From Escherichia coli (GTDB lineage: Bacteria; Pseudomonadota; Gammaproteobacteria; Enterobacterales; Enterobacteriaceae), in NCBI RefSeq assembly GCF_003334405.1, contig NZ_QOWM01000001.1: a stretch of 64,000 nt of DNA. One strand, written 5' to 3'. Under the pieces are notes generated by a model. The model saw only the letters and a program-made list of their open reading frames with translations. It was not told the origin of the DNA and made no database searches. Within the stretch, counting starts at the first letter, position 1; each line of letters opens with the position of its first letter. Shown piece after piece: positions 56,336-57,550 of the stretch. The translations under genes were made by a program, and so were the position numbers.

Positions 56336-57550
56336 TTAATGCGTAAAAATAGTTTGCTGATAATGTATACTCTGAATTCGATGTATCACAGATTCATGTT
56401 CAGGCATGTCGGAAGCATTGCTTGTCTCCACCGCTAGGGATGCAAAGGCGCTGGCATAACACAGTGCTGATTCCAGTGATTTTCCTTTCGCAAGTCCTGA
56501 TGCCAGAGAGCCGTTAAACGCATCCCCGGCTCCTGCCGTATTTTTAACGACCGCTGGAAACGCTGGCGAATGAATGAATTTTTTGCCATCAAATGCGAGC
56601 GAGCCCTTGCTACCGAGCGTGATAACCGTGTTTTTTACCCCTTTATTGTGGATAGCTTCTGCAGCTCGTTTAGCTGATTCAAGATCGTGTACGTCTATGC
56701 CGGACAGTAAACCAGCTTCTGTTTCATTGGGGGTGATATAATCAACATCCTGAATAAGTTCGTTGACGATATCATTATAGGGTGCCGGGTTAATAATGAC
56801 CGGGATACTGTTTTTTTGCGCCAATGTGATCGCTTGTTGCAGAGCGGTATAATTTGTTTCGAGCTGCAGAAGTATGACATCAGAATTAATAATCGCTTCT
56901 TTCTGAATAGTTATTTCATCGGACGACATTGTCATGTTGGCACTGGGATAGATCGCAATAACATTATCGCCAGTACCTTCATTAACAAGGATCGTGGCAG
57001 TTCCGGTTTGCGTTTCTTTCGTTTGATAAATTATACTTTTATAAATCTTAGACGAATTCATAAAGTTGATCGCATAATCACTAAAGTGATCTGTACCTAC
57101 TTTTGTTATGAAATAAACATCAGTATCGGCAAAGCTTGCTGCCAGCGCCTGGTTACAGCCTTTTCCCCCCGGTGAAAATATAAAATTACTTGCCAGAAGC
57201 GATTCTCCGATAGTGGGAAGCCTCGGCAAATAACTGATGATATCAACATTAAACGAACCAATAACGCATACTTGACTTTTCATAGTTGAATGGCCTTTTT
57301 TTATTCCCTGGGCTGTATCATAATTTTCAAGCGCATAAGCGATTTCATTTTTCGCAATAGTATCAAGCGAGTCTAGGACGATAAAAGCACCGCCATGACA
57401 TCGAGTCAGATAGCCAAGCCTGGCAAGTTCATTAAGATCTGAACGAATAGTTTCTTTCGTTACATTGAGGCTATTGGACAGATCGGATACTTTTACAGAA
57501 CCGAATTTACTGAGTCGTTTCAATATTTCATGATGGCGTTCAAATTTCAT
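56336..57550 (-). CDS. DeoR-type HTH domain fused to PfkB (ribokinase-like) carbohydrate kinase
   Basis: 404 aa; N-terminal MKFERHHEILKRLSKFGSVKVSDLSNSLNVTKETIRSDLNELARLGYL (DeoR HTH); kinase motifs GGKGCNQALAAS and TAGAGDAFNGSLASGLAKG. Confidence 0.75.
   Translation of the reverse strand: MKFERHHEILKRLSKFGSVKVSDLSNSLNVTKETIRSDLNELARLGYLTRCHGGAFIVLDSLDTIAKNEIAYALENYDTAQGIKKGHSTMKSQVCVIGSFNVDIISYLPRLPTIGESLLASNFIFSPGGKGCNQALAASFADTDVYFITKVGTDHFSDYAINFMNSSKIYKSIIYQTKETQTGTATILVNEGTGDNVIAIYPSANMTMSSDEITIQKEAIINSDVILLQLETNYTALQQAITLAQKNSIPVIINPAPYNDIVNELIQDVDYITPNETEAGLLSGIDVHDLESAKRAAEAIHNKGVKNTVITLGSKGSLAFDGKKFIHSPAFPAVVKNTAGAGDAFNGSLASGLAKGKSLESALCYASAFASLAVETSNASDMPEHESVIHRIQSIHYQQTIFTH

Follow-up and report, generated by a model that had tools for sequence, protein, structure and literature searches.

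The window considered here is a stretch of 64,000 nucleotides of the Escherichia coli contig NZ_QOWM01000001.1 (assembly GCF_003334405.1), which contains on its minus strand, at positions 56336..57550, a single uninterrupted ATG-to-stop open reading frame (ORF) of 404 amino acids. The product of this gene joins an N-terminal DeoR-type helix-turn-helix (HTH) to a ribokinase-like kinase of the PfkB family, and the gene is the first of a four-gene catabolic operon on the minus strand, in which it is followed by genes for a GATase1-like protein, a DMT_YdcZ transporter and a Pmi1525-type hydrolase (Table 1). The fusion is already known: judged by its protein sequence, the gene of the window is the E. 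coli ortholog of Salmonella rikA (STM3547), described by McCormick, Jabbar and Escalante-Semerena (Mol Microbiol, June 2026; PMC13432705). The two proteins are 80% identical along all 404 residues with zero gaps, and share the numbering of D343 and Met90; an E. coli RefSeq protein named "rikA, ribokinase RikA" (404 amino acids) is identical to the window protein at 403 of 404 positions. As the June 2026 paper on the Salmonella ortholog already describes both the fusion and the start at Met90, their observation in this window is not a discovery. What is added here is the evidence of selection on the N-terminal head, the conservation of the ATG at Met90 and a candidate operator, which sharpen an open point of the RikA paper, the only literature found on DeoR-PfkB fusions.

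The head of the protein corresponds to HTH_DeoR (PF08220, residues 5-56, E 4.9e-15) and the remainder to PfkB (PF00294, residues 92-382, E 3.1e-64), the latter match running from position 2 to 298 of the 302 positions of the model. No match to the DeoR-C domain was detected in the Pfam scan of the protein, residues 92-382 being PfkB instead, and because DeoR-C is absent the protein is not a canonical DeoR-family member. Likewise, no ROK domain (actin-like ATPase fold) was found behind the HTH with Pfam or Foldseek, the sensor domain being PfkB with a ribokinase fold. The initial annotation of this DNA, made from the letters alone, had claimed precisely this combination of a DeoR HTH with a complete PfkB kinase and no DeoR-C, and it is correct according to Pfam, NCBIfam and the alignment to RbsK; it had also considered that the N-terminal region might prove not to be an HTH, a possibility answered by the HTH_DeoR match. 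The best NCBIfam model for the whole protein is ribokinase TIGR02152 (residues 94-387), which scores 279.4 bits, below its cut-off of 299.65, and the score for PRK11142 (251, cut-off 341) is also below, so that by these models the protein is ribokinase-like and is not the curated RbsK equivalog. Apart from this score just under the equivalog cut-off, it has the features of the PfkB/ribokinase family. For the head, the best NCBIfam match is the N-terminus of AgaR (residues 5-63), and a PROSITE-style DeoR signature matches residues 5-39 as well as 17 of 22 orthologs (here and below, counts out of 22 refer to 22 fusion loci that are phylogenetically related and therefore non-independent).

The kinase encoded by the gene is a complete PfkB enzyme of the ribokinase type. 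Aligned with E. coli RbsK (1GQT/1RKD) by phmmer, it keeps the motifs GSFNVD, GGKGxNQ, QLE, TPNETE and NTAGAGD; the GAGD motif, which the initial annotation had reported as intact, lies at residues 340-343, and D343 (codon at 56522-56524, within NTAGAGD) is the counterpart of the catalytic D255 of RbsK. The ribose-binding residues N14, D16, K43, N46 and E143 of RbsK (1GQT) correspond to N101, D103, K130, N133 and E231, and residues G128, G129, K130, G131, T338, G340, A341, G342 and D343 are invariant across 24 homologs. The AlphaFold2 model of the protein (mean predicted local distance difference test, pLDDT, of 87) shows a winged HTH at residues 2-56, with helices at 2-16, 21-28 and 32-44 and strands at 18-20, 49-51 and 54-56, and a confident ribokinase fold from residue 93; residues 75-88 of the linker have pLDDT values below 50 and are predicted to be disordered. 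The modelled kinase part superimposes on 1RKD with a template modelling score of 0.92 and a root-mean-square deviation of 1.8 A (Foldseek), and no solved structure spanning both HTH and PfkB was found by sequence (phmmer) or by fold (Foldseek). The Salmonella protein alone enables growth on ribose, phosphorylates D-ribose with ATP (Km for ribose 2.0 mM, other pentoses being poor substrates), keeps 8 of 10 ribose-binding residues and needs D343, the D343A variant being inactive (PMC13432705). Its kcat is about 100-fold lower than that of RbsK and therefore ribose may not be the native substrate; its authors suggest that ribose is possibly an off-target substrate within an unknown pathway (PMC13432705).

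The fusion is not an artefact of assembly. At 95% identity or more the rikA sequence is present in 1993 of 5426 complete E. coli genomes, 1949 of which cover at least 80% of the query, and in about 1640 E. coli genomes it is at least 99% identical. Four other E. coli alleles that were translated have the identical ORF length of 404 amino acids, and the five alleles differ by no more than two residues. Proteins of about 400 amino acids with HTH_DeoR and PfkB are found in Salmonella (80-82% identity), Klebsiella, Citrobacter, Budvicia, Providencia, Pectobacterium, Rahnella, Brenneria and Orbaceae, and further ones in Aeromonas, Vibrio salinus and four Shewanella species. As the fusion orthologs reach down to 40% identity across other Gammaproteobacteria, and the same ORF is present in about 1950 E. 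coli genomes, the sequencing frameshift separating two genes that the initial annotation had named as a possible refutation is excluded. When residues 1-157 were compared with 1.84 billion representatives clustered at 50% identity, 81 matches were obtained at E<=1e-10, about two dozen of which, by manual count, are full-length representatives matched across head and kinase; the family is small and, in the sample examined, confined to Gammaproteobacteria. Among 60 other ribokinase loci, mostly of Bacillota and Alphaproteobacteria, none has a fused HTH and one has a separate DeoR-type gene nearby.

The only protein-level data on this family concern Salmonella and could be taken to mean that the gene truly begins at Met90, in which case codons 1-89 would be a mis-annotated leader or a vestigial regulator and the protein simply a third ribokinase. 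[quoted passage not shown] Met90 also aligns with the start of stand-alone ribokinases. This account is nevertheless highly improbable in view of the evolution of the head. Codons 1-57 show a ratio of nonsynonymous to synonymous substitution rates (dN/dS, Nei-Gojobori) of 0.04-0.19 in every pair with unsaturated dS, including E. coli-Salmonella, Pectobacterium-Brenneria and two Shewanella pairs, which is close to the ratio of the kinase domain wherever the latter can be measured. Fourteen HTH residues (R5, I9, V21, V30, E33, T34, R36, D38, L39, L42, R50, G53, G54 and A55) do not vary among 24 homologs with identities as low as 45%, and not one frameshift or stop occurs in orthologs as distant as 40% identity, which range from Shewanella, Vibrio and Aeromonas to E. 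coli. The head is a confident Pfam match modelled as a winged HTH, and Met1 is preceded by a strong Shine-Dalgarno (SD) sequence, the GAGG of which is shared unchanged by E. coli, Salmonella, Budvicia and Proteus. Given the selection on the head, its invariant residues and the strong SD of Met1, codons 1-89 are therefore not an untranslated leader, and by these comparisons the head is a selected and probably translated domain. The absence of the long form from the Salmonella experiment may have a technical cause, as it could have been missed because a clarified lysate was used and full-length His-tagged RikA is insoluble without maltose-binding protein (PMC13432705).

As a separate observation, dS between E. 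coli and Salmonella is 0.68 in the HTH-coding part (57383-57550 compared with 8001-8168 of the Salmonella locus), and the kinase part is saturated (proportion of synonymous differences 0.79); the lower dS in the HTH-coding part might be explained by an additional constraint on the 5' end of the mRNA or by the border of a recombination event.

A possible DNA target for the head was found upstream of the gene. DeoR-family operators often consist of repeated short half-sites, and the upstream region contains a tandem direct repeat, TTTTGCTT-tt-TTTTGCTT, with a 10-bp period, which is the sole match to this pattern in the 64-kb window. The sequence ATTTyTGyTTTTTTTTGsTTT is nearly invariant 5' of the E. 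coli, Salmonella, Budvicia and Proteus genes, where it is followed by TATG-N6-ATCACA, TATG and ATCACA being invariant in all four. With the half-site written as TTYYGYTT, the tandem pair is present at exact 10-bp spacing at -91 to -110 from the ATG in 15/22 fusion loci; the repeat takes the form of TTTTGYTT twice, about 90 bp upstream. A stricter regular expression, which misses the E. coli repeat, matched 14 of the 22 upstream regions and had no further match on either strand in the remainder of the 22 loci (at most about 13 kb per locus), and inverted AAACGAAC-N6-GTTCGTTT-like copies were matched in two of the four Shewanella species. The repeat stays with the fusion gene despite differing downstream genes (Zophobihabitans; Pectobacterium, Rahnella and Aeromonas), and there is no other regulator gene in the rikA operon of Salmonella or E. 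coli. The simplest reading of the repeat is autoregulation by the head, for which it would be the candidate operator. Based on this comparative evidence, which suggests that the head is functional and probably controls its own operon, a regulatory role is likely, because the head is under purifying selection and the upstream repeat travels with the gene. In one lineage (E. coli LAU-OXA and related dog and human isolates) a copy of the insertion sequence (IS) IS1 lies about 110-165 bp upstream of rikA; it is estimated to be just beyond the repeat and could change the expression of the operon.

Beside the repeat, the conserved TATGG-N6-TCACA element (TATGGTGATTATCACA) resembles a CRP site or a promoter core, and TGA-N6-TCAC occurs at a fixed distance from the repeat in several further genera. 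A CRP site could not be proposed from the window alone, in which TGTGA-N6-TCACA with up to two mismatches gives 26 matches against 27.9 expected, not above chance; any weight of the CRP-like element would come from its conservation across species only. Two promoter geometries were built by hand with no choice between them, namely a class II CRP arrangement with GATATT as -10 and an arrangement in which the repeat overlaps the -35 with TATGGT as -10.

With regard to the kinase-only isoform, the initial annotation had pointed to an in-frame Met at about residue 90 as its possible start. This residue is Met90, where MKSQVCVIGSFNVD begins, and the suggestion agrees with the species of about 35 kDa and the complementation by RikA(90-404) in Salmonella (PMC13432705). 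The codon is ATG in 20 of the 22 fusion orthologs, the exceptions being Acerihabitans with GTG and Proteus with GCA, in a linker that is otherwise variable. Met90 aligns exactly with residue 1 of many stand-alone ribokinases and therefore appears to be the ancestral start codon kept after the fusion. SD-like tracts before Met90 have a family mean of -5.0 kcal/mol compared with a within-gene background median of -1.7, and the mRNA near Met90 is less folded than the gene mean in 22/22 loci, which shows only that initiation is permitted there. The sigma-70 scan found no convincing promoter inside codons 1-89 for a separate kinase mRNA. Altogether, the internal start looks conserved. It is also conceivable that only the full-length fusion is translated and that the kinase of about 35 kDa results from proteolysis in the disordered linker, either as an artefact or as a physiological release from the head. 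The stretch with pLDDT below 50 lies directly before Met90, the SD of Met1 is far stronger than that of Met90 in E. coli and Salmonella, and the published mass was estimated by sodium dodecyl sulfate-polyacrylamide gel electrophoresis and tryptic identification, not by N-terminal sequencing (PMC13432705). Yet a protease inhibitor was present during lysis (PMC13432705), and simple proteolysis fails to explain why the ATG is kept in most orthologs amid an unconserved linker with SD-like tracts upstream; this origin of the short form is considered unlikely, though a serious alternative.

From the comparative data we infer two gene products, and the best explanation of the locus, held with a confidence only a little above even, is that rikA encodes a long regulator-kinase and a short kinase-only form, the HTH of the former acting on the candidate upstream operator. 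The selection on the head, the strong SD and the travelling repeat argue that the long form would be made and would bind DNA. According to this model the 404-residue form would start at Met1 behind the strong SD and carry the winged HTH on a flexible linker; it would dimerise via the kinase domain, setting two HTHs on the tandem TTTTGYTT half-sites upstream of its own start. The kinase domain would serve as sensor, so that binding or turnover of sugar and nucleotide would shift DNA binding and hence transcription of the operon, in which the neighbouring conserved CRP-like or promoter-core element would act jointly. The 315-residue form, initiated at Met90, would be a plain kinase. The interpretation offered in the initial annotation is thus supported in part, for the architecture and for the kinase-only isoform, the latter by the published Salmonella data and the conserved ATG; as to the repressor it had envisaged, which may sense or make its own effector, a regulatory role of the head is likely and may be repression or activation. 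An extension of the model, regarded as very doubtful, is a built-in circuit across Gammaproteobacteria in which the long homodimer, formed via the kinase lid, binds the repeat and the short isoform makes one-headed heterodimers unable to fill both half-sites, so that the ratio of initiation at Met1 and Met90 together with sugar/ATP occupancy would set operon expression. If this were true, the kinase-only isoform would be an anti-regulator of its own longer form.

Several points weigh against the preferred model of two products and an operator-bound long form. In Salmonella the native ribosome-binding site gave just the species of about 35 kDa. The counts among fusion loci come from related genomes, the T-rich repeat could be an UP-like element or the site of another factor, and no convincing promoter emerged from the sigma-70 scan in the stretch from the repeat to the ATG. 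On the side of the internal start, the SD before Met90 is weak in E. coli (-3.2 kcal/mol) and Salmonella (-3.4), with 10-nt spacing; Proteus, which lacks Met90, also shows low mRNA structure there; and a purine-rich, weakly folded region is also expected from a linker rich in Lys, Arg and Gly. Finally, in E. coli the transporter of the operon is a pseudogene, and the window allele carries the substitution G203S at a nearly invariant glycine of the kinase.

The last two points lead to a further possibility, that the fusion is a real regulator-kinase elsewhere and a non-functional relic of a horizontally acquired, IS-eroded island in this window. The gene order rikA, GATase1-like, DMT_YdcZ and phosphotriesterase is the same in Salmonella and E. 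coli. The Salmonella transporter gene is intact (323 amino acids), and an "internal stop" in DMT_YdcZ is flagged by RefSeq in four other E. coli genomes; because of the in-frame stop, found in other E. coli too, the E. coli operon probably lost the uptake step. Adjacent to the operon, at about 53175-53465 on the plus strand, remains a ggt 3' end of about 290 bp, which carries a 1-bp deletion and is around 85% identical to its Salmonella counterpart; past this stretch the homology ends. This remnant is a fossil of the donor context, in which the operon lies beside ggt, the block having been imported into the cobU region. Remnants of ISL3, IS66 and IS4 border the block, which lies between cbtA/yeeW relics and cobU. 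Based on the ggt remnant and these borders, the E. coli block is a horizontally acquired, partly eroded module. Codon 203 of rikA (56942-56944, minus strand) is Ser (AGT) in the window allele and Gly in the four other E. coli alleles, in all E. coli cluster representatives checked and in 23/24 family members, and aligns with G115 of RbsK. Some E. coli alleles are frameshifted, and in such lineages erosion of the module continues. The physiological role of rikA in this E. coli lineage may be reduced. On the other hand, the 404-residue ORF is intact in all five E. coli alleles translated, with at most two residue differences, the sequence is kept at 99% identity or more in about 1640 genomes, and the upstream repeat and the SD are preserved, as are the other two enzymes; a loss of function in this window is judged unlikely, though not strikingly so.

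Two side observations concern the same block. In E. coli GPEC1352 the annotation gives rikA as well as the GATase1-like gene as pseudogenes with a frameshift. According to the RefSeq annotation of matching genomes, the region from rikA to cobU (57669-59600) is made up of transposase fragments of IS66 and IS4, together with the remnant of a truncated "cobalamin biosynthesis protein" immediately upstream of cobU.

Table 1. Features of the rikA locus (positions in the window, strand and basis of each assignment)
Feature	Positions	Strand	Basis
rikA ORF, 404 aa + stop (HTH_DeoR, linker, PfkB ribokinase-like kinase)	56336..57550	-	ORF listing; Pfam; 80% gapless match to Salmonella RikA/STM3547
DeoR-type winged HTH, residues 5-56	57383..57538	-	PF08220 E 4.9e-15; AlphaFold2; 14 invariant residues; dN/dS
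Interdomain linker, residues 57-89, variable sequence	57284..57382	-	AlphaFold2 pLDDT; variable, indel-rich alignment columns
PfkB/ribokinase domain, residues 92-382	56405..57277	-	PF00294 E 3.1e-64; RbsK alignment; Foldseek
Strong SD GAGGTG for Met1	57555..57560	-	Anti-SD duplex -9.2 kcal/mol
Tandem direct repeat TTTTGCTT-tt-TTTTGCTT, 10-bp period, candidate operator for the HTH	57626..57643	-	Cross-species repeat scan
TATGG-N6-TCACA element (TATGGTGATTATCACA), CRP-like or promoter core	57597..57612	-	Conservation beside the repeat
ATG of Met90, candidate internal start of 315-aa kinase-only isoform	57281..57283	-	Conserved codon; stand-alone ribokinase alignment; Salmonella ~35 kDa species
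Weak SD-like AAAGG, 10 nt 5' of Met90 ATG	57294..57298	-	Anti-SD duplex -3.2 kcal/mol
Second operon gene, GATase1-like, STM3548 ortholog	55564..56322	-	PDB 2GK3 E 7e-145; PF07090 in Salmonella locus
Third operon gene, DMT_YdcZ transporter, pseudogene	54542..55507	-	In-frame stop at codon 203 (54899-54901)
Fourth operon gene, phosphotriesterase-related amidohydrolase, Pmi1525 ortholog	53505..54539	-	PDB 3RHG/4QSF E 4.7e-174
GC-rich hairpin between operon end and ggt remnant, likely terminator	53471..53497	.	12 pairs, 9 G-C

The neighbours of the fusion in other genera were considered with respect to its substrate. In Zophobihabitans entericus (locus 7208-9561) the fusion precedes genes for the uridine-preferring nucleoside hydrolase UriH (521 bits) and the uridine transporter UriT (689 bits), and in this clade ribose released from uridine is a predicted natural substrate of the kinase. 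An operon headed by the fusion is also present in Pectobacterium, Rahnella and Aeromonas, where it contains genes for a DapA/NAL-family aldolase and a major facilitator superfamily transporter (D-galactonate type) or other, unassigned transporter-sized genes, and the Aeromonas operon also includes a YhcH/YjgK/YiaL-family protein. The Pmi1525 and STM3548 orthologs beside rikA do not point to the native sugar, and a phosphorylated pentonolactone pathway, a speculative idea, was dropped. If the model of an operator-bound long form is true, it may provide a handle on the substrate of the operon formed by rikA, the GATase1-like gene and the Pmi1525-type hydrolase gene.

Among known systems, the E. 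coli copy stands closest to Salmonella RikA, with which it shares the four-gene operon and 80% identity; however, Salmonella rikA sits between yhhY and ggt, whereas the E. coli gene is part of an IS-flanked remnant near cobU and differs in its pseudogene transporter and its G203S allele. With the canonical regulators DeoR, GlpR, AgaR and FucR the protein shares the N-terminal HTH_DeoR, but it has the PfkB kinase in the place where the canonical DeoR family has the DeoR-C sugar-phosphate sensor. RbsK (1RKD, 1GQT) has the same fold, and its ribose-binding and catalytic residues are kept in RikA, which is about 36% identical and adds a 90-residue N-terminal extension of HTH plus linker. NagC and Mlc, of the ROK family, also combine a DNA-binding head with an enzyme-like sensor but have usually lost kinase activity, the kinase of RikA being active by contrast. 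Another PfkB-family protein is YeiI of E. coli K-12, the NCBIfam model of which has about 50 extra N-terminal positions, a putative HTH. The function of YeiI is uncharacterised (PMC9061257). The trigger enzymes BirA, NadR and PutA resemble RikA in having a DNA-binding head and an enzyme domain, although folds and HTH families differ and the likeness is one of logic only. A further parallel, likewise in logic only, is RbkR, an archaeal riboflavin kinase and regulator in which a kinase is combined with a winged HTH and which regulates its own gene among others; its operators were predicted by comparative genomics, DNA binding was shown experimentally and structurally, and the nucleotide substrate enhances this binding, which the product of the kinase in turn suppresses (PMC5397151). 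RbkR is thus like RikA a small-molecule kinase fused to a winged HTH, with operators predicted by the same kind of approach; unlike RikA, it is archaeal and has an unrelated kinase fold and HTH family, and DNA binding, which is established for RbkR, is a candidate property of RikA. If the model proposed here is true, RikA would be a bacterial sugar-kinase counterpart of RbkR, BirA and NadR.

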